A stretch of DNA of 64,000 bases from Bacteroidales bacterium. GTDB lineage: Bacteria > Bacteroidota > Bacteroidia > Bacteroidales > JAUNSR01. Shown here in pieces: positions 187 through 50,677 of the stretch (positions within the stretch are counted from its first letter, which is position 1; each line of letters opens with the position of its first letter). The notes under the pieces are model-generated. The model was not told where the DNA came from and made no database searches. It saw only the letters and a program-made list of their open reading frames with translations. Location of the stretch: positions 3,416 through 67,415 of the forward strand of contig JAVVPN010000003.1 of the NCBI GenBank assembly GCA_036655755.1, written 5' to 3'. Position numbers and translations under genes: made by a program.

Positions 187-2319
187 ATGACACTTGATAT
201 AACCCAAGACCTTAACAGTTTATTAAAAAAATATTACGGCTACGATTCGTTTCGTCCATTACAGCTCGATATCATCGAGCATGTACTGGACGGAAATGAC
301 GCATTGGTGTTGATGCCTACCGGAGGTGGAAAATCCATTTGCTATCAATTACCTGCGCTTGCCCGCGAAGGCACCGTTGTCGTTATCTCTCCATTGCTGG
401 CCCTGATGAAAGATCAGGTCGATGCGTTGCGAGCCAACGGTATCCCGGCGGCCGCGCTCAACAGCCTTCAAAGTGAGGCCGAAGCCGAGCTGATTAAAAA
501 CCAATGTATTTACGGTAAACTTAAATTGCTTTATATTTCACCCGAACGCGTGTTGGGTGAGATCGATTATTTATTGCGCCGTATGCCTGTCACGATGTTT
601 GCCATTGATGAGGCGCATTGTATTTCGCAGTGGGGACACGATTTCCGTACCACTTACACCGAATTATCCAAGCTGAAGCAATTCTTTCCGAATGTGCCAA
701 TGATGGCGCTTACGGCGACTGCGGATAAACTTACGCGCGAGGATATTCTCCAGCAATTAAACCTGCGTAGTCCGCGTGTGTTTATCTCTTCTTTCGACCG
801 GCCTAACTTGAGCCTTCGCGTAAAGAAAGGATTGAATAAAAAACAGAAACTATTCTCCATCGTCGAGTTTATCGAGCGACATCCGCGTCAGAGTGGTATT
901 ATTTATTGCCTAAGCCGCAATAGTACCGAAGCGCTCGCCGCCGAATTGGGTGAATATGGAATTGAAGCAGTTGCTTATCACGCCGGCATGGCACCCGAAG
1001 ACCGCGAAAAGATACAGTCCGATTTTCTGAACGACCGCATTGAGGTAATGTGTGCCACCATTGCATTCGGAATGGGTATCGACAAGTCGAATGTAAGGTG
1101 GGTGATTCATTATAACATGCCTAAAAGTCTCGAATGTTATTATCAGGAGATTGGCCGTGCGGGGCGCGACGGGATGCCGGGCGACACATTGCTTTTTTAC
1201 TCATTAGGCGATCTGGTGATGCTTTCTAAATTTGCCACCGAAAGCGGACAGAGTGAAATCAATCTTGAAAAATTACGTCGTATGCAGCAGTATGCCGAGG
1301 CCGATATCTGTCGCCGCCGTATTCTGCTGAGCTATTTTGGCGAAACTACCGAAACCGATTGTGGCAATTGTGACGTATGTAAAAATCCACCCGTTCGCTT
1401 CGATGGTACCGTGATTGCCCAAAAGGCACTTAGTGCGATTGTCCGAACGCAGGAACGTGTGGGTATCAATTTGCTGATTGATATTTTACGCGGGTCAAAA
1501 CGTTTCGAAATTACAGAAAAGGGATTCGATCAGATAAAGACCTTTGGTGCAGGAGCCGATCTTTCTCACGCGGTTTGGAATGCCTATCTGCTGCAACTAT
1601 TGCAATTGGGTTGTTTCGAAATGTTATACAAGCATGGCAATGTATTAAAGGTAACCGAACTGGGCTGGAAAGTGCTTAAAGGGGAAACCAATATTGAATT
1701 GCATGAGACAAAAGAGGAAGAGGTAAAACAAAAAACTACCCGTCGCAAAGCAACCGCATATATCGCACCCGAAGAGTCTTTGCTTTCCGAAGAAGATCGC
1801 TTGTTCGAGTCCTTGCGTATGTTGCGTAAGCGTATCGCAGTGGAGGAAGATGTGCCTGCATATATCGTATTTACCGATAAAGTTTTATCGGAGCTGGTAT
1901 CGGCGCGTCCTACCAATGTGCACCAATTTTCTGCTGTCAACGGGGTAGGCGAGCATAAGGCTAAGAAATACGGTAAAGAATTTGTCGATCTGATTCGTAA
2001 GGAATTGAATGTGAAGCGGCAGAAAGGCGACTCGATGTTGCAAACCCTGATGATGTATCAAAGCGGTATGTCGGTTGACGAAATTGTTGCCGCCCGTTCG
2101 ATGCAGCGTCCTACCGTATATTCTCATATCGCGCAGCTTGTGGCGGAAAATAAAATAACCAACTGGGATAATCTGATTGCAGACTATGAGTTGAAAAGTG
2201 TGCAGATGGCAGTGGCTCGCTTGGGCGGAAGCGAAGAGTTGAAGCCGATATTCGAATTGTTGAATGGGGGAGTGGAGTACGGTAAAATCCGTCTCGCACT
2301 CACCATTCTGAAAAAATAA
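187..2319 (+). CDS. recQ: ATP-dependent DNA helicase RecQ (long form with HRDC and an extra C-terminal HTH-like region)
   Basis: The 710-aa ORF has PTGGGKS (Walker A), DEAHCISQWGHDFR, the RecQ zinc-binding cysteines (CRRR...CGNCDVC) and an HRDC-like segment. Confidence 0.95.
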   Translation: MTLDITQDLNSLLKKYYGYDSFRPLQLDIIEHVLDGNDALVLMPTGGGKSICYQLPALAREGTVVVISPLLALMKDQVDALRANGIPAAALNSLQSEAEAELIKNQCIYGKLKLLYISPERVLGEIDYLLRRMPVTMFAIDEAHCISQWGHDFRTTYTELSKLKQFFPNVPMMALTATADKLTREDILQQLNLRSPRVFISSFDRPNLSLRVKKGLNKKQKLFSIVEFIERHPRQSGIIYCLSRNSTEALAAELGEYGIEAVAYHAGMAPEDREKIQSDFLNDRIEVMCATIAFGMGIDKSNVRWVIHYNMPKSLECYYQEIGRAGRDGMPGDTLLFYSLGDLVMLSKFATESGQSEINLEKLRRMQQYAEADICRRRILLSYFGETTETDCGNCDVCKNPPVRFDGTVIAQKALSAIVRTQERVGINLLIDILRGSKRFEITEKGFDQIKTFGAGADLSHAVWNAYLLQLLQLGCFEMLYKHGNVLKVTELGWKVLKGETNIELHETKEEEVKQKTTRRKATAYIAPEESLLSEEDRLFESLRMLRKRIAVEEDVPAYIVFTDKVLSELVSARPTNVHQFSAVNGVGEHKAKKYGKEFVDLIRKELNVKRQKGDSMLQTLMMYQSGMSVDEIVAARSMQRPTVYSHIAQLVAENKITNWDNLIADYELKSVQMAVARLGGSEELKPIFELLNGGVEYGKIRLALTILKK

Positions 2320-11787: not shown

Positions 11788-13575
11788 ATGAAGAATATTC
11801 GCAATTTTTGTATCATCGCCCACATTGACCACGGTAAAAGTACACTTGCTGACCGATTGCTGGAATTTACCAATACGGTAGCTGGTAGAGAAATGCAGGC
11901 TCAGGTGCTCGATAATATGGATTTGGAGCGTGAGCGTGGTATCACGATTAAAAGTCATGCCATCCAGATGGAGTATGTGCTCGACGGTGAAAAATATATC
12001 CTGAATCTGATTGACACTCCGGGACACGTAGACTTTTCGTATGAAGTATCACGTTCGATCGCCGCTTGTGAAGGCGCGTTGCTGATTGTTGACGGTACGC
12101 AGGGTATTCAGGCCCAGACGATCTCGAACCTGTATATGGCGGTAGATCATAATCTGGAGATTATCCCTGTTGTAAATAAATGTGACCTCGATAGCGCTAT
12201 GCCGGAAGAGGTGGAAGATCAGATCATCGAATTGCTCGGATGCGACCATTCGGAAATTATTCGTGCGAGCGGTAAAACCGGATTGGGAGTGGAAGAGATT
12301 CTTCGTGCTATCGTAGCGCGCGTACCGGCTCCGAAGGGTGATCCGGAAGCTCCGTTGCAGGCGCTGATTTTCGACTCGGTATTTAACTCGTATCGTGGTA
12401 TTATCGCTTACTTTAAAATTGTAAACGGTGTGTTGCGCAGTGGCGACAAGGTGAAATTCGTAGCTACCGGCAAGGAATATGAGGCGGATGAAATCGGAGT
12501 GCTGAAACTGGATATGGACCCGCGTAAGGAATTGCGTACGGGGGATGTGGGTTACATCATTTCGGGTATCAAGACGTCGAAAGAGGTGAAAGTGGGTGAT
12601 ACCATTACGCATCAGGCACGTCCTTGTGAGAGCGGTATCGACGGATTTGAGGAGGTGAAACCGATGGTGTTCGCCGGAATCTATCCGATCGAGAGTGAGG
12701 ATTTCGAAAACTTGCGCGCTTCTCTTGAAAAATTGCAGCTGAATGATGCGTCGCTGACTTTCCAGCCGGAATCGTCGTTGGCGTTGGGCTTTGGCTTCCG
12801 ATGCGGATTCCTGGGCTTGCTTCATATGGAGATTATCCAGGAGCGTTTGGATCGTGAGTTCGATATGGACGTAATCACTACCGTACCCAATGTATCGTAT
12901 AAAGTATATGATAAGAAAGGGGAGATGACAGAGGTGCATAACCCGTCGGGACTTCCTGATCCGACTTTGATTGAGAAGATTGAAGAACCGTATATCCGTG
13001 CTTCGGTAATCACAACGACCAATTACATCGGGCCGATTATGAGCTTGTGTTTGGGTAAACGTGGTGAGTTGATCAAGCAGGAATATATTTCGGGCGATCG
13101 TGTAGAGATTTTCTATGACATCCCATTGGGTGAAATCGTGATCGACTTTTACGATAAGCTGAAAAGTATTTCGAAAGGATATGCATCGTTCGATTATTAT
13201 ATCAGTGACTTCCGTCCGTCGAAACTGGCGAAACTGGATATCCTGTTGAACGGGGAGCCGGTGGATGCGTTGTCTACATTGACACATGTGGATAATGCGG
13301 TTACTTTGGGTCGCCGTATGTGTGAGAAACTGAAAGATTTGATTCCGCGCCAGCAGTTTGATATCGCTATTCAGGCTGCGATCGGAGCAAAAATCATCGC
13401 CCGCGAAACAATTAAGGCCGTTCGTAAAGACGTAACCGCAAAATGTTATGGTGGTGATATCAGCCGTAAGCGTAAACTCCTTGAAAAACAGAAGAAAGGA
13501 AAGAAACGAATGAAGCAGATTGGTACGGTTGAGGTACCTCAGAAAGCTTTCTTAGCAGTATTGAAGCTTGATTAA
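11788..13575 (+). CDS. lepA: translation elongation factor 4 (LepA)
   Basis: The 595-aa ORF has [14 protein letters not shown] and NKCD GTPase motifs and the LepA C-terminal region. Confidence 0.97.
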
Positions 13576-29848: not shown

Positions 29849-30976
29849 ATGAAATTTACTGATTTGAACATTGAGAAGCCAATTCTAAAGGCGCTTCTTG
29901 AGAAAGGATATACGACTCCTACCCCTATTCAACAACAAGCAATTCCCGTTATTTTAGATAAAAAAGATGTTCTGGGCTGTGCTCAGACAGGAACCGGTAA
30001 AACGGCTGCTTTTTCTATTCCGATTATTCAGCATCTTTATCAGGCAGCACCTGCGGATAAAGGGCCGCGTCGCATCCAGGCGCTTATTCTGACACCTACG
30101 CGCGAGCTTGCTATTCAGATCGCCGATTGTGTGGCCGAATACAGCCGTTATACCAATTTGCGTCATTGCGTGATATTCGGGGGTGTAAAACAGGGGGCTC
30201 AGACAGAGAAACTCAAAAAAGGGGTGGATATTCTTATCGCTACTCCGGGCCGTTTGCTCGATTTGATGCAGCAAGGATATATCACCTTAGAGCACATCCG
30301 CTATTTTGTGCTTGACGAGGCCGATCACATGCTCGATATGGGATTCATCCATGATATCAAGCGGATTCTACCTAAATTGCCAAAGAAAAGACAAACATTG
30401 TTTTTCTCTGCAACCATGCCGCCGGCAATTGCGTCGCTTGCCAATTCGATTCTATTCCATCCGGTACGCGTAGAGGTTGCACCCGCATCATCAACTGTTG
30501 AAACGGTAGAGCAATACCTGTATGCTATTGAGAAAAAAGAAAAGAAAAACCTCTTGATCCATCTGTTGCAGAAACAGAATTATCCCTCGGTACTTGTTTT
30601 CTCTCGTACTAAACACGGAGCCGACAAAATTGTGAAAGATTTACGCAAGGTGGGCATCGGCAGCGAAGCGATCCATGGTAATAAATCGCAGAACGCACGT
30701 CAGCGCGCGCTTACGCTGTTTAAAGAAAATCAAATCCGGGTATTGATCGCAACCGATATTGCCGCTCGTGGTATCGATGTGAGCCAGTTGTCGCTGGTAA
30801 TCAATTACGACCTGCCGAATGTACCCGAAACATATGTACACCGTATTGGCCGTACAGGGCGTGCCGGTGAAAAAGGACTTGCTTTCACTTTCTGTGATTC
30901 GGAAGAAAAACCGTTGTTGAAGGATATCGAAAAACTAATCGGTAACCGGATCATCAAACGGGCCAAAATAGATTGA
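29849..30976 (+). CDS. DEAD-box ATP-dependent RNA helicase
   Basis: Q-motif, AQTGTGKT, PTRELA, DEAD (here DEADHM), SAT and HRIGRTGRAG motifs are present. Confidence 0.92.
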   Translation: MKFTDLNIEKPILKALLEKGYTTPTPIQQQAIPVILDKKDVLGCAQTGTGKTAAFSIPIIQHLYQAAPADKGPRRIQALILTPTRELAIQIADCVAEYSRYTNLRHCVIFGGVKQGAQTEKLKKGVDILIATPGRLLDLMQQGYITLEHIRYFVLDEADHMLDMGFIHDIKRILPKLPKKRQTLFFSATMPPAIASLANSILFHPVRVEVAPASSTVETVEQYLYAIEKKEKKNLLIHLLQKQNYPSVLVFSRTKHGADKIVKDLRKVGIGSEAIHGNKSQNARQRALTLFKENQIRVLIATDIAARGIDVSQLSLVINYDLPNVPETYVHRIGRTGRAGEKGLAFTFCDSEEKPLLKDIEKLIGNRIIKRAKID

Positions 30977-31006: not shown

Positions 31007-32269
31007 ATGACTTTTGATTCTTTTAAACTGATTCATCCCCTTTTAAAAGCTCTTGAAAAAGGAAATTTTCTCACTCCGACGCCGATTCAGGAGATGGCAA
31101 TCCCTGTGTTGATGGAGGGGAAAGACTTAATGGCATTCGCTCAGACCGGAACCGGCAAGACGGCTGCTTTTTTGTTGCCTCTGCTCCAAAAGGTTTACAA
31201 AAATAACCGCAACGGCATAAAAGCGCTGATTCTGACTCCGACGCGTGAATTGGCTCAGCAAACAGGCGAAGCGATCTATCTGTTGGGAAAATACATGGAT
31301 GTGGCCCACGCTGTTATTTACGGCGGTGTGCCGCATGACGAGCAGATCGAAATGTTTCGCGGGCAAGTGGATATCGTGGTGGCTACGCCGGGTCGTTTGC
31401 TCGACCTGCTGGGGCGCAACGCACTTAAACTCGATCAGGTGAATACTTTTGTGCTGGATGAGGCCGACCGCATGCTCGACATGGGCTTTATTGAGGATGT
31501 ACAACGTATCTTATCGACACTGCCTCCCAAGCGTCAGTCGATGTTGTTTTCGGCTACCATGTCACCCACGATCGCGGGGTTGGCAGATGTTATGCTGTCT
31601 GAGCCCGAACGTGTGTTTGCGGCCCCTACGGCATCTGCTTCTGAGCTGATTGAACAGAAAGTATATTATATCGAAAAGCAAAACAAACCCTCGTTGTTGA
31701 TTGATTTTCTTCGGAAAGAGGAGGTAAAGACGGCAATTGTGTTTACCAAAACCCGCAAAAGTGCGGATGCTTTGCACATACGCTTGCAGGAAGCGGGTTT
31801 TAGTAGCGACCGCCTTCATTCCGATCGTTCTCAACATGCGCGCGATACGATTCTGACGGCTTTTCGTAACGGCGAGTTGCCGATTCTGGTAGCTACCGAC
31901 ATTGCTGCGCGCGGCATAGATGTGGCGCATCTTACGCATGTGTTTAATTACGAGTTGCCTCAAGAGGCCGAAACCTATATTCATAGGGTAGGGCGTACCG
32001 GCAGAGCAGGGAAGGAGGGTATCGCCATCACTTTGTGCGAGCCCGACGATAAGGCGATGCTGGGGGATATTCAGAAATTGATGCGCAAGTGTATTCCTGT
32101 TGTTGAAAATCATACGTATGCTACGCTGGCATTGAAACAGGCGCTCGAAGTGGCCGATCTTAAAATCGCGGGTAAAGCGGTTGCGAAAAAAGGCTATAAG
32201 GGAAGTAAGGCCAACGGCGATTATTTCCGACGTCAGAAGATGGCACAGCGAAAGGGAAAAAATAAATAA
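31007..32269 (+). CDS. DEAD-box ATP-dependent RNA helicase with basic C-terminal tail
   Basis: AQTGTGKT, PTRELA, DEADRM, SAT and HRVGRTGRAG motifs are present. The tail is Lys/Arg-rich. Confidence 0.92.
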   Translation: MTFDSFKLIHPLLKALEKGNFLTPTPIQEMAIPVLMEGKDLMAFAQTGTGKTAAFLLPLLQKVYKNNRNGIKALILTPTRELAQQTGEAIYLLGKYMDVAHAVIYGGVPHDEQIEMFRGQVDIVVATPGRLLDLLGRNALKLDQVNTFVLDEADRMLDMGFIEDVQRILSTLPPKRQSMLFSATMSPTIAGLADVMLSEPERVFAAPTASASELIEQKVYYIEKQNKPSLLIDFLRKEEVKTAIVFTKTRKSADALHIRLQEAGFSSDRLHSDRSQHARDTILTAFRNGELPILVATDIAARGIDVAHLTHVFNYELPQEAETYIHRVGRTGRAGKEGIAITLCEPDDKAMLGDIQKLMRKCIPVVENHTYATLALKQALEVADLKIAGKAVAKKGYKGSKANGDYFRRQKMAQRKGKNK

Positions 32270-33591: not shown

Positions 33592-33625
33592 AAAAACAGA
33601 GGCGTCCTTTCGGGGGACGCCTCTG
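33592..33625 (-). terminator. intrinsic terminator after the DUF349 gene
   Basis: An 11-bp perfect stem CAGAGGCGTCC/GGACGCCTCTG is followed on the minus strand by a T-run (TTTTTAT). Confidence 0.8.
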
Positions 33626-33643
33626 TAAAAATATATAATGAAT

Positions 33644-35452
33644 TTATTTCAGATTTTCGTCGATCACGTCGATTTTCTGAGCGATCGTATTCATATCTTC
33701 TTTGATCTTTTCGATCTTGCGTTCCATCTCTTTCACCAAAGCGTTACCTCCCTTAGAAGAAGAAGAAAGGAATCCAACATTGTTTTCGTACGTTTTCAGT
33801 TCCGTCTTCATATGATCGAAGGCACGCATCAGTTTTTCGCGTTCGCGATACAGTGCGTTTTGTGACTGATTACCATCGGCAAGTTTACCTACGTTTGCCG
33901 TAAAGTTGTCAAGATGTGCTTTACGACCCTGTTTGTTAAAGCGAGCGAATAAAATATCAAGCATACCCTGGTATTCCTTGAAGATTTTATCTTTCTCCTT
34001 AAACGGTACATGCCCGATGTTTTTCCATTCGGCCATGATATCCTGCAATTCTTTGAACTGACTCTCCTGATTTTCCGACATTGCGCGTAGCTTTTCAATC
34101 AATACCTTTTTAGCTTCAAGGTTTGCTGTTTCTGCCGAACGTGAGCTTGACGAGTTTTTCTCTTTCTGTTCGAAGAAATAATCGCAAGCCGCAATAAATC
34201 GGTTCCAAAGCATATCTGAATATTTGCGGGCAACCGGTCCAACCTTTTTCCATTCTTTCTGAAGAGCGATTAGCTGATCAGTCGTGTGCTTCCAGTCGGT
34301 ACTGTCTTTCAACGCTTCTGCTTTTTCACACAGAGCACGTTTCAATTCCAGATTTGAGGCCAGCTGGTCTTTCATCTGTTGAAAATATACCGATTTGGCA
34401 GCGAAGAATTCATCGCAAGCTTTACGGAAACGGTCGAACAGCAGGTTGTTTACTTTTTTAGAAGCGAATCCCACTTTCTTCCATTGCTCTTGCAGGTCAA
34501 TGACTTCTTTGGTTTTGTTTTCCCATGCCTGGAATGATTTCAGGTCGGCAACGTTAAGCTCTTCTATTTTTTTGCAAAGTTCCTCTTTCTGACGCTCATT
34601 TTCAGCTTCTGTTTCTTTGATGTTTTCAAAGAATTGCTGATGACGTTTGTTAATCGAAGTGGACGCGTCTTTAAAACGGTTCCATAACTCTTCACGCATA
34701 TTCGGAGCTACCGGGCCGGTCTGACGCCACTCTTCATGCAATTCCTGCAAACGGCGGAAAGCTGCAATGATATCGTTCTCTGTAGTCAGTGCTTCAGCTT
34801 CCGTACACAACGCTTCTTTGTGCTCCTGATTTTTCTTGAAATCATAGTCGCGCAATTCTTTATTGATCTTAAGCAGGTCGTAGAATGTTTCTGTGTACTT
34901 CTGGAAGTTCTTCCACAACTCATTTACATGAGTCGGCGGGATATCTGTAATCTCACGGAATCTTTTTGACAGTTCCTGAAATTCATTGTAGTATTTGTTG
35001 ATATTGTCGCTGTCGTCCGCAATTTTACGGATTTCTTCGAGTACCGCTTGTTTAAGGGCCAGGTTCTCGCGGCGACGAGCTTCTTTTGCTTCGAGAGCAG
35101 CAGCTTTTTTAGCTTTAAAATCATTCAAGAGCGTCTTCAAGCCTTCTTCCAGGGAGTCTGGTTCTACGGTAAAATCTGTTTCCGCATTTCCGGCTTCCAC
35201 GAACGCAGCCTTTGCTGTTTCAATTTCATGTTTGCGTAGTTTATAATAAAGCTGCTTGAGCGACTCCACTTCCTCTTTTACATCTTCCGGCGACTGTCCG
35301 ATCAGAATCTGAAGGCGAGCGATTACTTCTTCGCGGTTATTATAATCTTTTTTAGGCATCTCCTGCGTTTTGGCAGGCTCCTGTGTCCGTGTTTCGTTAA
35401 CCTGAGGATTTTCAGCGTTGAGCGATTCGGAAGTTGCAAGAACATCAGTCAT
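33644..35452 (-). CDS. DUF349 repeat protein (coiled-coil rich, 602 aa)
   Basis: About five tandem ~70-aa repeats carry the DUF349 signature (e.g. LQEQWKKVGFASKKVNNLLFDRFRKACDEFF, LQKEWKKVGPVARKYSDMLWNRFIAACDYFF). Confidence 0.85.
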   Translation of the reverse strand: MTDVLATSESLNAENPQVNETRTQEPAKTQEMPKKDYNNREEVIARLQILIGQSPEDVKEEVESLKQLYYKLRKHEIETAKAAFVEAGNAETDFTVEPDSLEEGLKTLLNDFKAKKAAALEAKEARRRENLALKQAVLEEIRKIADDSDNINKYYNEFQELSKRFREITDIPPTHVNELWKNFQKYTETFYDLLKINKELRDYDFKKNQEHKEALCTEAEALTTENDIIAAFRRLQELHEEWRQTGPVAPNMREELWNRFKDASTSINKRHQQFFENIKETEAENERQKEELCKKIEELNVADLKSFQAWENKTKEVIDLQEQWKKVGFASKKVNNLLFDRFRKACDEFFAAKSVYFQQMKDQLASNLELKRALCEKAEALKDSTDWKHTTDQLIALQKEWKKVGPVARKYSDMLWNRFIAACDYFFEQKEKNSSSSRSAETANLEAKKVLIEKLRAMSENQESQFKELQDIMAEWKNIGHVPFKEKDKIFKEYQGMLDILFARFNKQGRKAHLDNFTANVGKLADGNQSQNALYREREKLMRAFDHMKTELKTYENNVGFLSSSSKGGNALVKEMERKIEKIKEDMNTIAQKIDVIDENLK

Positions 35453-35583
35453 AGCTACTTGAATTAATTGCTGTTAATTAAACTTTTAGTATTACAAAAT
35501 AAGGGAAATATTCTCGGATAACAATCAAGTCGCTCTCTTTTTTGAGAGAAAGAACAGACTTTCTCGTTAAAATGCGCTAAAAA

Positions 35584-36360
35584 CTACGTGTTCAGTATCT
35601 CAACACACCCAAAACCAAGTCCGACCTTGTCTCCTAAACCGGTATTATAAATAAGATGATGAAGTGCCGGATGCGCCTTGAAACGGAACTTATACATATA
35701 TCCGATGATTTTTGTCTCTTCCTCTGTAAAGCGTTTGATGAAAATACCTTTTCTTTTTGGTGTAGATAGCAATTCAAAGCTATAATCTGGCTGATGCGGG
35801 AAATCGTGCCCGTAAAAATGACGGTATTTGTCCAGCAGAATATTCATTAATGTCTGGCTATAATTGAGATCTTCGGGCGAAATATACTCTACGCTTTTAT
35901 TCTGACGTAAAGAGGATACCACAATGGGTGATAAAGAAAGATAATCGATTGATTTCGGAAAATCAACCTTATTGATCTCTTCAATGCTTTCGGTTACGAA
36001 TTCGACCTGAGTTTTCCGGTCGCCTATTAAAAGTACCTGATTGGTAAGTATCTTCTTAATAAATTCTGCCGTACCCCGTTCCGGAAGGAAAGAGATCCAG
36101 AACTGAACTTTGCGGGCCAATACGTGCAGGCGATCTTCTTCTACTTTGATTTTCGGTATGTAGAAATTGGATAATGAAAAAAGTTTGTGTTTGATGTTGT
36201 TATCCGCGATGAAGCCGTTCATCTCGAGCCATTCATTGTATTCCTTTTTATTCTCGGTTAACTTTTTGTAAATACATGAAGATAGTTCAAATTGGTAACT
36301 AACTGGCAAAATATTCCCAAACGCTTCATTTCGAACGACTAAAACTATCTTAAATCTCAT
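35584..36360 (-). CDS. cas6: Cas6-like (RAMP superfamily) endoribonuclease homologue, stand-alone
   Basis: MRFKIVLVV...LPVSYQFELSSCIYKKL, HKLFSLSNF and a C-terminal GLGDKVGLGFG are present. The last fits the Cas6 glycine-rich loop GhGxxxxxGhG. I prefer the ATG at 36360 to the TTG at 36366. Confidence 0.7.
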   Translation of the reverse strand: MRFKIVLVVRNEAFGNILPVSYQFELSSCIYKKLTENKKEYNEWLEMNGFIADNNIKHKLFSLSNFYIPKIKVEEDRLHVLARKVQFWISFLPERGTAEFIKKILTNQVLLIGDRKTQVEFVTESIEEINKVDFPKSIDYLSLSPIVVSSLRQNKSVEYISPEDLNYSQTLMNILLDKYRHFYGHDFPHQPDYSFELLSTPKRKGIFIKRFTEEETKIIGYMYKFRFKAHPALHHLIYNTGLGDKVGLGFGCVEILNT

Positions 36361-36533
36361 ATACAAATAAATTTGGTGTAAAAATATAAAAAAGTCAAAA
36401 TAATAAAGCCAAAAAGAGCCAATTATTTTGACAGAATTTTGCTTTTATTTGAATATGCTCTGCTTATTTTACCTAATAAGTCAAAAATAGAATGGATAAG
36501 TATATAAGTTCTATCCGACAGGCATGATTTTAT

Positions 36534-36541
36534 TATTTTTG
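36534..36541 (+). promoter_or_regulatory. candidate -7 box for ttcA (implies leaderless or very short leader mRNA)
   Basis: TATTTTTG ends 4 nt before the ATG at 36546. Confidence 0.4.
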
Positions 36542-36545
36542 CAGC

Positions 36546-37298
36546 ATGGGAAAAAAGTTTACAGAAGAGGAGCAGCTGTTCCATAAAATAGAGCGTAAAA
36601 TCCGCAAAGCGATGGTGGATTACCGTTTGATAGAGGATGGTGATAAGATCTTGGTCGGATTGTCGGGTGGAAAAGATTCCTTGGCATTGATAGAACTGCT
36701 GGGACGCCGCAAAAAGATTCTAAAACCTCGCTTTGAGGTGGTTGCCGTGCACGTATCAATGACCAATATCGGCTACGTATCCGATCTTGAGTATTTACGT
36801 AAACACTGCGAGGACAACGATATTCGTTTTATCCATCATGTAGATGCTTTCGATATGAGTACCGACAAGCGTAAATCACCCTGCTTCCTTTGTTCGTGGA
36901 CTCGCCGTAAAGCGATGTTTGCGCTGGCAAAAGAGCATGGTTGCAATAAAATAGCGTTAGGTCATCATCAGGATGATATATTGCAAACGTTGTTGATGAA
37001 TATGACCTTTCAGGGAGCATTCGGCACAATGCCTCCTAAACTGAAAATGGATAAGTTTGAAATGACAATTATTCGCCCCATGTGTCTGGTTGCCGAAAAA
37101 GAGTTGATCGAGCTGGAGCAACTGCGCGGATATATACGTCAGAAGCAACCTTGTCCGTATGAATGCTCATCGAGTCGTCCGGAAATGAAAAACGTAGTGA
37201 AGATGCTTGAGGGGATGAACGAAAAGGCGCGTTTTAACCTATGGTCGAGTATGACCAATATTCAGACCGATTATCTTCCCCGTATCGAAAACGATTAA
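36546..37298 (+). CDS. ttcA: tRNA 2-thiocytidine biosynthesis protein TtcA (PP-loop ATPase)
   Basis: The PP-loop SGGKDS is present, with CxxC-type cysteines (CFLCSW, CPYEC) and overall TtcA-like architecture. Confidence 0.85.
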   Translation: MGKKFTEEEQLFHKIERKIRKAMVDYRLIEDGDKILVGLSGGKDSLALIELLGRRKKILKPRFEVVAVHVSMTNIGYVSDLEYLRKHCEDNDIRFIHHVDAFDMSTDKRKSPCFLCSWTRRKAMFALAKEHGCNKIALGHHQDDILQTLLMNMTFQGAFGTMPPKLKMDKFEMTIIRPMCLVAEKELIELEQLRGYIRQKQPCPYECSSSRPEMKNVVKMLEGMNEKARFNLWSSMTNIQTDYLPRIEND

Positions 37299-47037: not shown

Positions 47038-48426
47038 ATGTCTTTGATTAAATCTATTTCCGGAATTCGCGGAACCATTGGAGGACAGGCGGGAGACGGT
47101 TTAAACCCTCTTGATATCGTAAAGTTTACGGCAGCATATGCTACTGTAATCCGCCGTATGGGAGCTTCCGACTCGAATAAAATCGTAGTAGGGCGCGATG
47201 CCCGAATTTCTGGTGAAATGGTGCTTTATAATGTAATCGGCACATTGATGGGTATGGGATTCGATGTGGTAAACATCGGCCTGGCTACCACTCCTACCAC
47301 CGAGCTTGCCGTAACGGGCGAAAAAGCCGCAGGGGGTATTATTCTTACTGCAAGCCATAACCCACGTCAGTGGAATGCCTTGAAACTATTGAATGAAAAA
47401 GGCGAATTCCTGAATGCTGCCGAAGGTAACGAAGTGCTTGAGATTGCCGCTGCCGAAGATTTCGACTTTGCAGAGGTGGATCAGCTGGGTAAACTGACTG
47501 AAGATTTTTCATATACACAGAAACATATTGAGAGCGTACTTGCGCTCAACCTTGTAGATGTTGAGGCGATTAAGGCGGCCAACTTCCGCGTAGCGGTTGA
47601 TTGTGTAAATTCGGTAGGCGGAATCGCTATCCCGGCTTTATTGGAGGCTTTAGGCGTAAAACAGGTTGAAAAACTATATTGCGAACCAAACGGACAGTTC
47701 CCGCACAATCCGGAGCCGCTTCCTGAACATCTTACCGATATTTCGGCATTGATGAAAGAGGGGCGTGCCGATGTAGGTTTTGTGGTTGATCCCGATGTAG
47801 ACCGCCTGGCGGTAATCTGCGAGAACGGAGCGATGTTTGGCGAAGAATATACATTGGTGGCGGTAGCCGACTATGTATTGCGTCATACGCCGGGTAACAC
47901 CGTATCCAACCTGAGCTCTTCACGCGCGTTGCGCGACGTAACCCGCGCATTGGGCGGCGAATACAATGCTGCCGCTGTGGGAGAAGTAAACGTGGTTGCC
48001 AAAATGAAAGAAACCGGTGCCGTAATCGGTGGCGAAGGTAATGGCGGGGTTATTTATCCTGAATCTCATTACGGACGCGATGCTCTGGTGGGGATTGCTT
48101 TGTTCCTTACTCATTTGGCTAAGACAGGTAAAAAAGTGAGCGAACTGCGCGCTTCTTATCCTGCTTACTCTATCGCGAAACAGAAAGTGGAATTAACTCC
48201 GGATATCGATGTAGATGCATTGTTGATCGCGGTAAAAGAGAAATACGCACAATACGATATTACCGATATCGACGGTGTGAAAATCGATTTCCCTGATCGT
48301 TGGGTTCACCTGCGCAAGTCGAATACGGAACCGATCATCCGTGTGTATGCTGAAGCGGCTACTGCTCAGGAAGCCGAAGATACTGCTGCCGGCGTGATGA
48401 GCGTAATTCGTGAAATGGCTAAATAA
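47038..48426 (+). CDS. glmM: phosphoglucosamine mutase / phosphohexomutase family
   Basis: The active-site loop TASHNP, the metal site DPDVDR and the sugar loop GGEGNGG occur in 462 aa. Confidence 0.85.
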   Translation: MSLIKSISGIRGTIGGQAGDGLNPLDIVKFTAAYATVIRRMGASDSNKIVVGRDARISGEMVLYNVIGTLMGMGFDVVNIGLATTPTTELAVTGEKAAGGIILTASHNPRQWNALKLLNEKGEFLNAAEGNEVLEIAAAEDFDFAEVDQLGKLTEDFSYTQKHIESVLALNLVDVEAIKAANFRVAVDCVNSVGGIAIPALLEALGVKQVEKLYCEPNGQFPHNPEPLPEHLTDISALMKEGRADVGFVVDPDVDRLAVICENGAMFGEEYTLVAVADYVLRHTPGNTVSNLSSSRALRDVTRALGGEYNAAAVGEVNVVAKMKETGAVIGGEGNGGVIYPESHYGRDALVGIALFLTHLAKTGKKVSELRASYPAYSIAKQKVELTPDIDVDALLIAVKEKYAQYDITDIDGVKIDFPDRWVHLRKSNTEPIIRVYAEAATAQEAEDTAAGVMSVIREMAK

Positions 48427-48444
48427 TAAATAGATGAATATTCG

Positions 48445-48476
48445 AAAGACCCGCAACTCTGCGGGTCTTTTTTTTG
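48445..48476 (+). terminator. intrinsic terminator after glmM
   Basis: The stem AAAGACCCGC/GCGGGTCTTT with a 6-nt loop is followed by a T-run. Confidence 0.85.
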
Positions 48477-48522
48477 CACCGGCCCTTCCTTTTGATATCA
48501 AATACTTCTTCTTTGTTAAGCT

Positions 48523-48704
48523 GATAGTGGCTTTTGTCATCGGCGATAGTGGCTTCTGTCATCGGCGATAGTAGTGTGGTGATGCACTCACGGGGAGCGG
48601 ATGTGTGCTTCAAGAGGGACGGATGTGTGCCTCACGAGGGGCGGATGTGTGCTTCATGGGGCACACTATTGTGCTTCTTGAAGCAAACTATTGTTTCCGA
48701 ATGG
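48523..48704. repeat. degenerate tandem repeat array, period ~21-22 nt (about 8 units)
   Basis: Two units of GATAGTGGCTT(T/C)TGTCATCGGC lie at 48523 and 48545, followed by a diverged third. Three units of CGGATGTGTGC(T/C)TCA...GGG(G/A) lie at 48598, 48620 and 48642. Two decayed copies follow at 48662 and 48684 (CACACTATTGTGCTTCTTGAAG, CAAACTATTGTTTCCGAATGG). Confidence 0.8.
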
Positions 48705-48904: not shown

Positions 48905-50677
48905 ATGCAAATCAATCGAAAAGCGCTGCTTCCGGTAGCTGCTGTTTTAGGACTTGCTGCTTTGTTTGGCTGTAAGCAGAAGCCACAAGATGCAGAACTG
49001 ACTTTGCTTTATACAACCGATCTTCACGGCGCGATATTGCCGTATGATTTTAATAAAGACAAGGTTGCCGCTACCAGTATGGCGAATGTGGCGACTTATG
49101 TGAAACAGGAACGGGCAAAAGATAAAGACGGCGTGTTGTTGCTGGATGCGGGCGACTTTTTACAGGGGCAGCCGTCTATTTATTATTCGAATTTTGAAGA
49201 TACCATCGGCGAGCATATTCAGGCGCGTGTGATGGAATATGTAGGATATGAGGCGGCAGCTGTCGGGAATCATGATATTGAGCCGGGTGAAGCCGTATAC
49301 AGCCGTGTACAGAAAGATTTTGATTTCCCTTGGTTGGCGGCAAATGCCATTGATACGCGTACGGGAAAACCATTCTTTCAACCTTATGCGGTATATGAAA
49401 AGAATGGTATCAAGGTTGCCGTATTGGGGATGATTACTCCCAATATTCAGGCTTGGTTGCCGAAATATCTGTGGGAGAACATCGAGTTTCGTGACATGGT
49501 GGAAACCGCACAGGAGTGGGTACCTTACATTCAGCAAAAAGAGAAACCCGATTTGCTGATCGGACTGTTCCATTCGGGAAGCGACTATACGGCGAATGGC
49601 AGTACGATAGATACCTATAAAAATGAGAACGGTGCGATTCCGGCAGTAACGAAAGTGGATGGATTCGACATTGCGTTGCTCGGACACGACCATCAGGAAA
49701 AAGTGGACGAAATTACCAATAACTTTGGTAATAAGGTGGTGATTCTTGATGCGCAGACGGGTGCCCGCTATGTGGGGCGTGCCGATATCAAACTTCATCG
49801 CAACGGCGATAAGTATGAAAAAACAATTACTCCTTCGTTGGTAGAGATGAAGAATGTGCCGCAGGATAGTGCTTTTGTGGCAGCATTCAGTAAGGATGTA
49901 AAACAGATCAATGAATATGTGGATGCGCAGATCGGATTGCTTTCGGATACGTTGCGCAGTACCGACGCGCTTTACGGGCCTTCTGAATTTATGGACCTGA
50001 TTCATGACGCTCAGTTGGAAGCAACGGGTGCCGACGTTTCGTTTGCGGGCGTATTATCGACCGATGCAGTGATTCCGACAGGAAAACTGACAATGCGTAA
50101 CCTGTTTACGCTTTATAAATATGAGAACCTGCTTTATACGATGTCGTTGAGCGGAAAGGAGATCAAGGATTTTCTGGAATACGGATTCGGCCGTCAGTAT
50201 AACCAAATGAAATCGCCGAAAGATCATTTGTTGAATTTCAAGAAAGATGAAAAAGGGAATTTGGTGAAGAGCGCCCGTTTCGGTTACTCTTTTGTAACGC
50301 CTTCATTCAACTTTACGTCGGCTGCCGGAATCAAATATACGGTAGATGTCACTAAACCGGTTGGTGAGCGCGTAACGATCCTGTCGATGAGCGACGGTAC
50401 GCCATTTGATGCTGACAAGCAGTATAAGGTGGCTGTCAATTCGTATCAGGCGAGTGGGGGCGGCGGCTTCTTCTTTGAAGGGCTTGGCTTTACCAAAGAG
50501 CAGACGGATGCACGCGTAATCAATGCTTCGAAAAATGATGTGCGCAAATATATTGCCGATTACATTCGTAAACAGCAGACGATTACTCCGAAAAGCAGAG
50601 GTGACTGGAAGGTGATTCCGGAAAACTATTTTGAAGCGGGTAAAGCGACCGATATGAAACTGATGGGCGGTAAATAA
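48905..50677 (+). CDS. bifunctional metallophosphatase/5'-nucleotidase lipoprotein (UshA/CpdB family)
   Basis: The lipobox is LFGCKQ. Metallophosphatase motifs TTDLHG, GDFLQG and GNHDIE are present, with a C-terminal nucleotidase substrate-binding domain. Confidence 0.85.
   Translation: MQINRKALLPVAAVLGLAALFGCKQKPQDAELTLLYTTDLHGAILPYDFNKDKVAATSMANVATYVKQERAKDKDGVLLLDAGDFLQGQPSIYYSNFEDTIGEHIQARVMEYVGYEAAAVGNHDIEPGEAVYSRVQKDFDFPWLAANAIDTRTGKPFFQPYAVYEKNGIKVAVLGMITPNIQAWLPKYLWENIEFRDMVETAQEWVPYIQQKEKPDLLIGLFHSGSDYTANGSTIDTYKNENGAIPAVTKVDGFDIALLGHDHQEKVDEITNNFGNKVVILDAQTGARYVGRADIKLHRNGDKYEKTITPSLVEMKNVPQDSAFVAAFSKDVKQINEYVDAQIGLLSDTLRSTDALYGPSEFMDLIHDAQLEATGADVSFAGVLSTDAVIPTGKLTMRNLFTLYKYENLLYTMSLSGKEIKDFLEYGFGRQYNQMKSPKDHLLNFKKDEKGNLVKSARFGYSFVTPSFNFTSAAGIKYTVDVTKPVGERVTILSMSDGTPFDADKQYKVAVNSYQASGGGGFFFEGLGFTKEQTDARVINASKNDVRKYIADYIRKQQTITPKSRGDWKVIPENYFEAGKATDMKLMGGK

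Follow-up and report, generated by a model that had tools for sequence, protein, structure and literature searches.

The 64-kb stretch of Bacteroidales DNA analysed here (the window), identical in sequence to a contig of the Bacteroidales metagenome-assembled genome (MAG) GCA_036650915.1, carries a solitary Cas6-like gene directly upstream of a gene of the DUF349 family. The protein belongs to a group of Bacteroidales Cas6 homologues, hereafter clade A, that is derived from the Cas6b of type I-B CRISPR-Cas systems; its genes lie beside DUF349, with no cas gene at their loci, and it has lost the catalytic histidine. Probably, the protein has been recruited for a host RNA-related job. We favour, with rather more belief than doubt, an exapted Cas6b derivative that binds RNA with little or no cleavage and acts together with DUF349. 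An initial annotation of the window, made from the sequence alone, had offered three readings of the gene: a Cas6 acting in trans on a distant array, a relic of a lost locus, or a Cas6 fold co-opted outside CRISPR. The last of these is the one favoured by the clade-wide DUF349 linkage, the loss of catalytic residues and the low ratio of nonsynonymous to synonymous substitution (dN/dS) described below.

The solitary gene encodes a Cas6 homologue

The open reading frame (ORF) extends on the minus strand from an ATG at 36360 to a stop codon at 35584-35586. Its 258 aa product starts with MRFKIVLVVRNEAFGNILPVSYQFELSSCIYKKL (MRFKIVLVV...), displays HKLFSLSNF at residues 58-66 and ends with GLGDKVGLGFGCVEILNT; ORF calling and translation reproduced the gene as initially annotated. 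Pfam searches returned two domains, Cas_Cas6_C (6e-23) and the N-terminal Cas6_I-A domain (1e-6), each scoring higher than its gathering cut-off (82.4 against 23 for PF01881, 29.2 against 27 for PF21350). The NCBIfam equivalog TIGR01877 (cas_cas6) scored 86.9 bits against a cut-off of 58.65, while the best PADLOC model, Cas6b, matched the protein end to end at 4.6e-51. An AlphaFold2 model built with 51 homologues (predicted local distance difference test score, pLDDT, 88.6; predicted template modelling score, pTM, 0.84) adopts a tandem ferredoxin/RNA recognition motif (RRM) fold. When it was compared with solved structures by Foldseek, the model matched the Pyrococcus and Methanocaldococcus Cas6 entries 3qjj, 5yi6, 3ufc and 3pkm with an E-value of 5e-15 and template modelling (TM) scores of 0.75-0.81. 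Profile searching and fold comparison, two of the checks suggested at the outset, both came out in favour of the Cas6 call, and on their strength the protein is a genuine Cas6 homologue whose match lies far beyond chance.

Recent horizontal acquisition was considered and rejected as an origin of the gene, the composition of which is not distinctive for the window: it has 38.1% GC where the mean over genes is 44.1% (z = -1.6), and at third codon positions (GC3) z is -0.7.

The gene lies outside CRISPR-cas loci and beside DUF349

We searched the 64-kb window for repeat-spacer arrays with Tandem Repeats Finder (TRF), a repeat finder, a spacing-based array detector and Rfam, and none was found. 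Among the 53 window ORFs of at least 90 aa, PADLOC assigned the Cas6-like ORF alone to a Cas family; the remaining matches were generic cross-hits from housekeeping proteins, namely RecQ, two DEAD-box helicases, a UvrA-like ABC ATPase and a polyphosphate kinase. The initial observation that neither an array nor another cas gene is present in the 64 kb therefore held. Type I-B proteins from a canonical locus (L010), used as queries in local phmmer and hidden Markov model (HMM) searches, matched nothing in the window and nothing at any clade A locus.

A database search with the Cas6-like protein retrieved 78 relatives, the closer ones being annotated as Cas6 and originating from Bacteroidales MAGs and Coprobacter. 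The Coprobacter secundus homologue (61% identity) and that of another lineage (51%) lie directly upstream of DUF349 within wholly different outer flanks, while a Paludibacteraceae relative, 35% identical, heads a canonical type I-B operon with Cas7, Cas3 HD, Cas3 and Cas4. A scan with the family alignment of one genome per GTDB species yielded 80 loci, which were classified by script. Clade A comprises the window and 46 Bacteroidales species loci (38-90% identity), including Coprobacter, Barnesiella, Ca. Caccoplasma, Ca. Gallibacteroides and many gut and rumen MAGs. The other 34 loci (33-42% identity), from Paludibacter, Mariniphaga, Parabacteroides gordonii, Belliella and others, form clade B.

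The two clades differ sharply in their surroundings. Homologues of cas genes occur within ±10 kb at 0 of 46 clade A loci and at 28 of 34 clade B loci (Fisher p = 5e-16), the latter encoding Cas3 or Cascade homologues; five of the six clade B exceptions are short contigs. Many clade B loci also carry arrays of typical I-B repeats (CTTTTAATYG...GGAATTGAAAY), while no array was found within ±10 kb of the 46 clade A species loci. Conversely, a DUF349 gene follows on the same strand, 71-246 bp downstream, in all 45 clade A loci with enough sequence, and in no clade B locus. The synteny initially proposed with DUF349 and ttcA is thus conserved on one side only: adjacency to DUF349 is kept, while the outer flanks vary among ttcA, M16 peptidase, kdsA, rsmE and valS. 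In a distance-based neighbour-joining tree clade A is monophyletic (100/100 bootstraps); the proteins closest to it are Cas6b members encoded in type I-B operons that are accompanied by typical I-B repeats.

The deep-branching half of clade A, made up of rumen and gut MAGs, shares the order rsmE (16S rRNA methyltransferase) - (kdsA) - Cas6-like gene - DUF349 - valS, kdsA not being constant. This stretch, with rsmE assigned by its Methyltrans_RNA and PUA_4 domains, occupies 8230-15719 in L045, 9260-15557 in L048, 2155-5156 in L051 and 9190-15499 in L056. As for valS, L048 is the one locus where Pfam confirmed it behind DUF349; the gene at that place in L045 and L056 is of similar size (about 900 aa), and L051 stops inside DUF349. 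Judging by gene content, these surroundings are a translation-related neighbourhood.

Two canonical loci deserve separate mention. The sole full-length exception in clade B (L087, 10001-10771) encodes a His-bearing canonical Cas6b on a 123-kb contig with no cas gene or array detected within ±10 kb, and may represent a Cas6 that genuinely acts in trans or one that was orphaned recently. In L010, six copies of a 13-nt core, AAAGGTGAAGGCG, are spaced at 48-50 nt between a 242-aa ORF and cas8b (12234-12541); this is not a CRISPR array.

The catalytic histidine is lost and the RNA-binding loop is kept

The glycine-rich loop of Cas6 proteins is RNA-contacting. The corresponding GhGxxxxxGhG signature, which had been recognised in the initial annotation, spans G241 to G251, and conservation of G241, G243, G249, F250 and G251 reaches at least 95% in clades A and B alike.

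Catalytic positions were mapped by family HMM alignment to 3pkm and 5yi6. Y31, E46 and K59 of the Cas6-like protein correspond to Tyr31, His46 and Lys52 of the P. furiosus Cas6 (PfCas6) triad, and M. jannaschii Cas6 carries the same catalytic His as P. furiosus His46. In clade A, position 46 is occupied by 12 different residues and never by His (0 of 49 sequences; motif WLxxNG), and position 31 by seven. In clade B, Y31 and H46 are present in 34 of 34 sequences and the motif is always WLHxxG; F58, G103 and K209 are invariant as well, and all five positions are relaxed in clade A. There is no invariant His anywhere in the clade A alignment, and H58 of HKLFSLSNF is neither a catalytic position nor conserved within the clade. 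Of the His/Tyr/Lys set expected of an active enzyme, the window protein therefore retains a Tyr that varies across its clade and a Lys at position 59 (Lys or Arg in 46 of 49), His being replaced by Glu. The Cas6 part of the original label, a Cas6-like endoribonuclease, stands; with Glu46 and no invariant His to compensate for it, the endoribonuclease part is unsupported. Mutation of the His in Thermus Cas6 enzymes causes a 300- to 17,000-fold loss of activity (PMC3902920), and from the alignment it is probable that the clade A protein is catalytically inactive.

His loss is not by itself proof of inactivity, because two Sulfolobus enzymes, SsCas6 and SsoCas6, cleave without it (PMC3902920), a precedent that counts against the non-cleaving view. 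It is conceivable that the clade A protein is an exapted but active endoribonuclease, processing a host RNA, possibly DUF349- or translation-linked, through a His-independent site of Lys, Arg or Tyr residues as in Sulfolobus. Retention of Lys or Arg at position 59, the newly invariant Y67, Q86, Y140 and R203 and the strong purifying selection would agree with this. However, positions 46 and 31 vary freely, no His is invariant, the helix after strand 1, where the Sulfolobus catalytic Lys is located, has no invariant basic residue in the alignment, and no conserved candidate substrate hairpin was found near the locus. We judge an active nuclease unlikely, if still worth keeping in mind.

The complete set of clade A-specific invariant residues is S21, Y67, V73, Q86, W88, Y140, R203 and M222. 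Those at the surface (Y67, Q86, W88, Y140, M222), the strict adjacency to and co-divergence with DUF349, and a net positive charge lower in clade A than in the canonical clade (+1.6 vs +3.5) would also suit a module for protein interaction or scaffolding, such as a partner or chaperone of the DUF349 rod, devoid of any sequence-specific RNA role. Such a module is hard to reconcile with an invariant RNA-contacting loop, a retained basic PKRKG segment and a newly invariant R203, and we consider it improbable.

When 1.84 billion representative proteins were searched exhaustively with an HMM, 2,698 relatives were recovered. Among the best 150 of these, about 11 bear the clade A signature and all lack His46, while 127 of the 139 others keep it; about a dozen lack His46 without having the clade A signature. 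Three such Cas6b-like proteins were looked up (L096, 8001-8786, Microscilla marina AAWS01000021; L097, 2075-2845; P0439, JGI 3300059473), and all are solo in unrelated housekeeping surroundings, no cas gene lying nearby: one is next to dihydroorotate dehydrogenase, one (Microscilla marina) is flanked by a SpoIIE phosphatase and a giant histidine kinase, and one follows folE-fabD. Going by this small sample of three cases, loss of the His together with departure from cas loci may be recurrent in Bacteroidota.

The gene is under purifying selection and co-diverges with DUF349

For pairs with unsaturated synonymous sites, dN/dS was 0.03-0.07 for the Cas6-like gene and 0.02-0.09 for DUF349, and several Cas6-like pairs at 80-90% protein identity had already reached saturated dS. 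The reading frame is intact in all 46 clade A species. In the window's lineage the Cas6-like protein is even more conserved than DUF349 (90% vs 83% and 79% vs 63% identity). The gene is under strong purifying selection. Concomitantly, the pairwise distances of the Cas6-like and DUF349 partners correlate with r = 0.90 over 44 distinct gene pairs.

These values decide the fate of the relic reading, according to which the gene is the decaying remnant of a lost type I-B locus. Its I-B Cas6b ancestry and its lost catalytic residues speak for that idea, which we nevertheless reject because of the low dN/dS and the conservation above that of DUF349; the intact frames, the saturated synonymous sites at high protein identity, the newly invariant residues and the conserved position next to DUF349 point the same way, and the relic is effectively refuted.

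The trans-acting reading supposes a Cas6, catalytic or repeat-binding, that serves an array or a type III or type I system elsewhere in the genome. cas6 genes are sometimes encoded apart from arrays, non-catalytic Pyrococcus Cas6 homologues bind CRISPR repeats, and the glycine-rich loop is kept, all of which may be counted in its favour. Yet over 46 species the gene was never near cas genes or arrays, and no second canonical Cas6b from the 46 clade A assemblies is among the 80 loci kept. The DUF349 linkage, the co-divergence with a neighbour in housekeeping context and the very low dN/dS fit a vertically inherited core gene rather than the patchy inheritance of CRISPR-cas. Because the catalytic His and Tyr are unconstrained, the adjacent gene is DUF349 and never cas (45/45), and the two genes co-diverge, a Cas6 acting in trans seems to us distinctly improbable.

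The DUF349 partner is an older core gene

DUF349 is far more widespread than the Cas6-like gene, with thousands of matches. In Bacteroidota outside clade A it lies, without a Cas6-like gene, in the arrangement hsp20 - DUF349 - pyrG - yidC next to a divergent trmD, as in L093, L094 and L095 (DUF349 at 5001-~7200). Because DUF349 is so much more widespread and occurs elsewhere on its own, the Cas6 derivative is, judging from this distribution, a lineage-specific addition to an older core gene. The predicted DUF349 structure, a locally confident model, is a rod of repeated short-helix/long-helix units. In the one experimental study of the family that we found, the mycobacterial protein MSMEG_2731, which has three DUF349 repeats, bound RNA, single-stranded DNA and double-stranded DNA with affinities of about 1-3 uM and formed a 1:1 complex with ribosomal protein S1 (PMC3348880).

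Transcription signals and the search for an RNA partner

The features of the locus are collected in Table 1. Within the window the two genes are not separated by a terminator, and DUF349 is followed by a strong one, at which a joint transcript would end, so that their co-transcription is plausible here. The box in front of DUF349 resembles the Bacteroidetes -7 promoter element TAnnTTTG; by this resemblance it may be such an element, and DUF349 may therefore have its own promoter. Downstream of the corresponding box of the Cas6-like gene, the closest relatives (L013-L017) share a conserved leader.

Table 1. Features of the Cas6-like/DUF349 locus, in window coordinates
Feature	Position	Strand	Basis
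Strong hairpin resembling an intrinsic terminator (12-bp stem with 8 GC pairs; T-run), immediately behind DUF349	33596..33626	-	
DUF349 gene encoding 602 aa with five Pfam DUF349 repeats, an all-helical rod by prediction; invariant downstream partner in clade A	33644..35452	-	
Cas6-like/DUF349 spacer, 131 nt; no terminator-like site, no CRISPR-repeat-like unit, folds no better than shuffles (z = -0.45)	35453..35583	-	
TTATTTTG box 42 nt before the DUF349 ATG, putative -7 element	35495..35502	-	intergenic comparison; tentative assignment
Cas6-like gene, 258 aa, His-less DUF349-linked clade A, derived from type I-B Cas6b	35584..36360	-	ORF, profiles, fold, clade assignment
Glycine-rich loop G241-L-G-D-K-V-G-L-G-F-G251, Cas6 RNA-binding signature (GhGxxxxxGhG)	35608..35640	-	alignment
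Lys59 codon, PfCas6 Lys52 equivalent; Lys/Arg in 46/49 clade A sequences	36184..36186	-	alignment
Glu46 codon (GAG; ctc on plus strand), aligned to PfCas6 His46 and the clade B invariant His	36223..36225	-	HMM alignment
Tyr31 codon, PfCas6 Tyr31 equivalent; clade A residues H/Y/N/F/S/T/K	36268..36270	-	alignment
TTATTTTG box 36-43 nt upstream of the Cas6-like ATG, putative -7 element	36396..36403	-	tentative assignment

Between genera the Cas6-like/DUF349 spacers are not conserved, and the upstream regions are conserved only among close relatives. Two kinds of RNA partner were considered and rejected. A hidden mini-array or solitary repeat was sought by comparing nine I-B repeat consensuses with the clade A loci and the window, and the best identity, 67-73%, did not exceed that given by shuffled sequence. 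As for a conserved structured RNA beside the Cas6-like gene, the spacer gave the z of -0.45 listed in Table 1, and the recurring elements were limited to boxes resembling promoters and, in some genera, to hairpins resembling terminators.

A model for the Cas6-like/DUF349 pair

In the model that we favour, a type I-B Cas6b would have been captured once next to DUF349 in the ancestor of a Bacteroidales group. Constraint on the catalytic His and Tyr would then have been released, with the RNA-binding loop and the basic Lys52 equivalent being kept and new conserved surface residues gained, and the pair would have been inherited together as slowly evolving core genes. The present-day protein would bind a specific host RNA without cleavage, or with feeble cleavage, like the non-catalytic Pyrococcus homologue, and the Cas6-like and DUF349 proteins would act jointly in an RNA- or translation-related housekeeping process. 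What we infer, as distinct from the homology, fold, residue losses, linkage, co-divergence and selection observed, is that the protein binds RNA, that it does not cleave it, and that it partners DUF349 functionally or physically. More tentatively, and with somewhat less than even confidence, we propose that this Cas6b descendant might be a vertically inherited housekeeping RNA-binding factor which works with DUF349 in gut and rumen Bacteroidales, perhaps at the ribosome/mRNA interface; the latter location is plausible because of the rsmE, valS, ttcA and DEAD-box neighbourhoods and the precedent of an S1-binding DUF349 protein.

Besides the His-independent Sulfolobus enzymes, several observations weigh against the exapted RNA-binding pair. 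Many clade A spacers contain a terminator-like hairpin and, beyond it, a TTAnTTTG box situated about 40-55 nt ahead of the start codon of DUF349; with a hairpin after the Cas6-like gene and then a promoter-like box, the pair may often be transcribed separately. Among the clade A loci, no structure conserved across genera was found in intergenic or upstream regions, and neither the spacers, the upstream regions nor repeat-like units of the window and clade A loci provided a candidate RNA partner. A fold search with the DUF349 model returned no PDB match at E < 0.5. The family is uncharacterised in Bacteroidota, where the mycobacterial S1 and RNA data, a distant actinobacterial precedent, can serve as a lead only. 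Finally, the absence of cas genes and arrays covers the 64-kb window and ±10 kb per locus rather than whole clade A genomes.

Comparison with known Cas6 proteins and CRISPR derivatives

The closest known system is the type I-B Cas6b of Bacteroidota (for example the Paludibacteraceae protein P0072 in locus L010), which shares with clade A its family, length, double-RRM fold and glycine-rich loop at 33-42% identity. In contrast to clade A, canonical Cas6b has an invariant Y31, H46, F58, G103 and K209 and is encoded beside cas8b-cas7-cas5-cas3 and I-B repeat arrays. Clade A loci lack the cas8b-cas7-cas5-cas3(-cas4-cas1-cas2) genes and the 29-30-nt repeats ending in ATTGAAAY, and the gene is fixed beside DUF349.

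The best structural matches (TM 0.75-0.81) were PH0350 (3qjj/3qjl/3qjp), presumably the non-catalytic P. horikoshii Cas6 homologue of the literature, and the P. furiosus Cas6-related protein 3ufc. Like clade A, both have no His at the PfCas6 His46 position (LLSS, LLES) and keep the glycine-rich loop. Unlike clade A, the non-catalytic Pyrococcus homologues are archaeal, occur in CRISPR-bearing genomes and bind CRISPR repeat RNA, and we know of no association between them and DUF349. Because identity to them is only about 23% and clade A nests with bacterial Cas6b whose closest members have the His, the loss of this residue in clade A is, on sequence grounds, independent of that in the Pyrococcus proteins and took place in a different subfamily. 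A non-catalytic P. horikoshii Cas6 homologue is on record, as is the Cas6 fold without an active-site His in Sulfolobus SsCas6 (SSO2004) and SsoCas6 (SSO1437) (PMC3902920). The Sulfolobus proteins differ from clade A in being crRNA-processing enzymes in CRISPR loci, and their structural similarity is lower (4ill/4ilm, TM about 0.5-0.58).

Exapted CRISPR derivatives have been reviewed (PMC8730458) and include a Streptomyces I-E-like cas5-6-7-8 module with a STAND NTPase, haloarchaeal HRAMP, type IV systems and CRISPR-associated transposons (CAST). As in clade A, Cas proteins were recruited from adaptive immunity without arrays or adaptation genes; however, these derivatives are multi-Cas and still look related to defence or mobile genetic elements, whereas clade A has a single Cas6 derivative whose partner is not a Cas protein and whose surroundings are core-genome and translation-related. 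The Cas6-like/DUF349 pair is absent from that review, and targeted literature searches (orphan, solo and non-catalytic Cas6; DUF349; Barnesiella and Coprobacter) yielded no description of it. The mycobacterial MSMEG_2731/Rv2731 (PF03993) is related to the DUF349 partner distantly, through the shared repeat family only and with three repeats instead of five; no Cas6-like partner has been reported for it.

Other features of the window

The neighbours were as initially annotated: the DUF349 gene begins 131 bp downstream of the Cas6-like gene on the same strand, and a ttcA-like PP-loop ATP_bind_3 gene (36546-37298, +) is divergent from it. A perfect TAnnTTTG box, TATTTTTG (36530-36548), ends 4 nt before the ttcA-like ATG; if it is a -7 element, the ttcA-like mRNA would have no leader or a very short one. 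Two tandem DEAD-box RNA helicase genes (29849-30976 and 31007-32269, +) are located 1.4 kb beyond the DUF349 gene. A RecQ gene is found at 187-2316 (+), and RecQ also lies a few kb downstream of the Cas6-like/DUF349 pair in L007 (Coprobacter) and L011 (a related lineage). The proximity of RecQ and the DEAD-box genes to the pair may be a coincidence.

PADLOC run on the 49 non-helicase window proteins gave strong matches to mad3 (5.6e-86) and mad8 (7e-31) and weaker ones to AriA, NsnB, HEC-01A, AbiLi, DrmC and LmuB, which are probably housekeeping paralogues (an ABC ATPase, a PLD-type kinase and others). No Rfam match and no tRNA was found in the 64-kb window. A phosphoglucomutase-like gene (47038-48423) is separated by 480 bp from a 5'-nucleotidase/metallophosphatase gene (48905-50674), and this interval holds two adjacent 22-bp tandem arrays, GATAGTGGCTTYTGTCATCGGC x2.3 and GGGRCGGATGTGTGCYTCANGA x3 (48512-48694), just preceded by a terminator-like hairpin at ~48449-48476.

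Significance

Genes annotated as "CRISPR-associated endoribonuclease Cas6" in Barnesiella, Coprobacter and related MAGs should not be taken as a sign that CRISPR-Cas is present. Documented Cas exaptations mostly concern whole effector modules or are still tied to mobile elements and defence. If our interpretation is correct, this single Cas6, deprived of its active site and maintained as a slowly evolving core gene with one fixed non-Cas partner across several families of abundant gut bacteria, would be a clean case in which a module for CRISPR RNA recognition has found new use in the RNA biology of the host, and it would give a first functional handle on DUF349, a widespread uncharacterised family in Bacteroidota and Actinobacteria.

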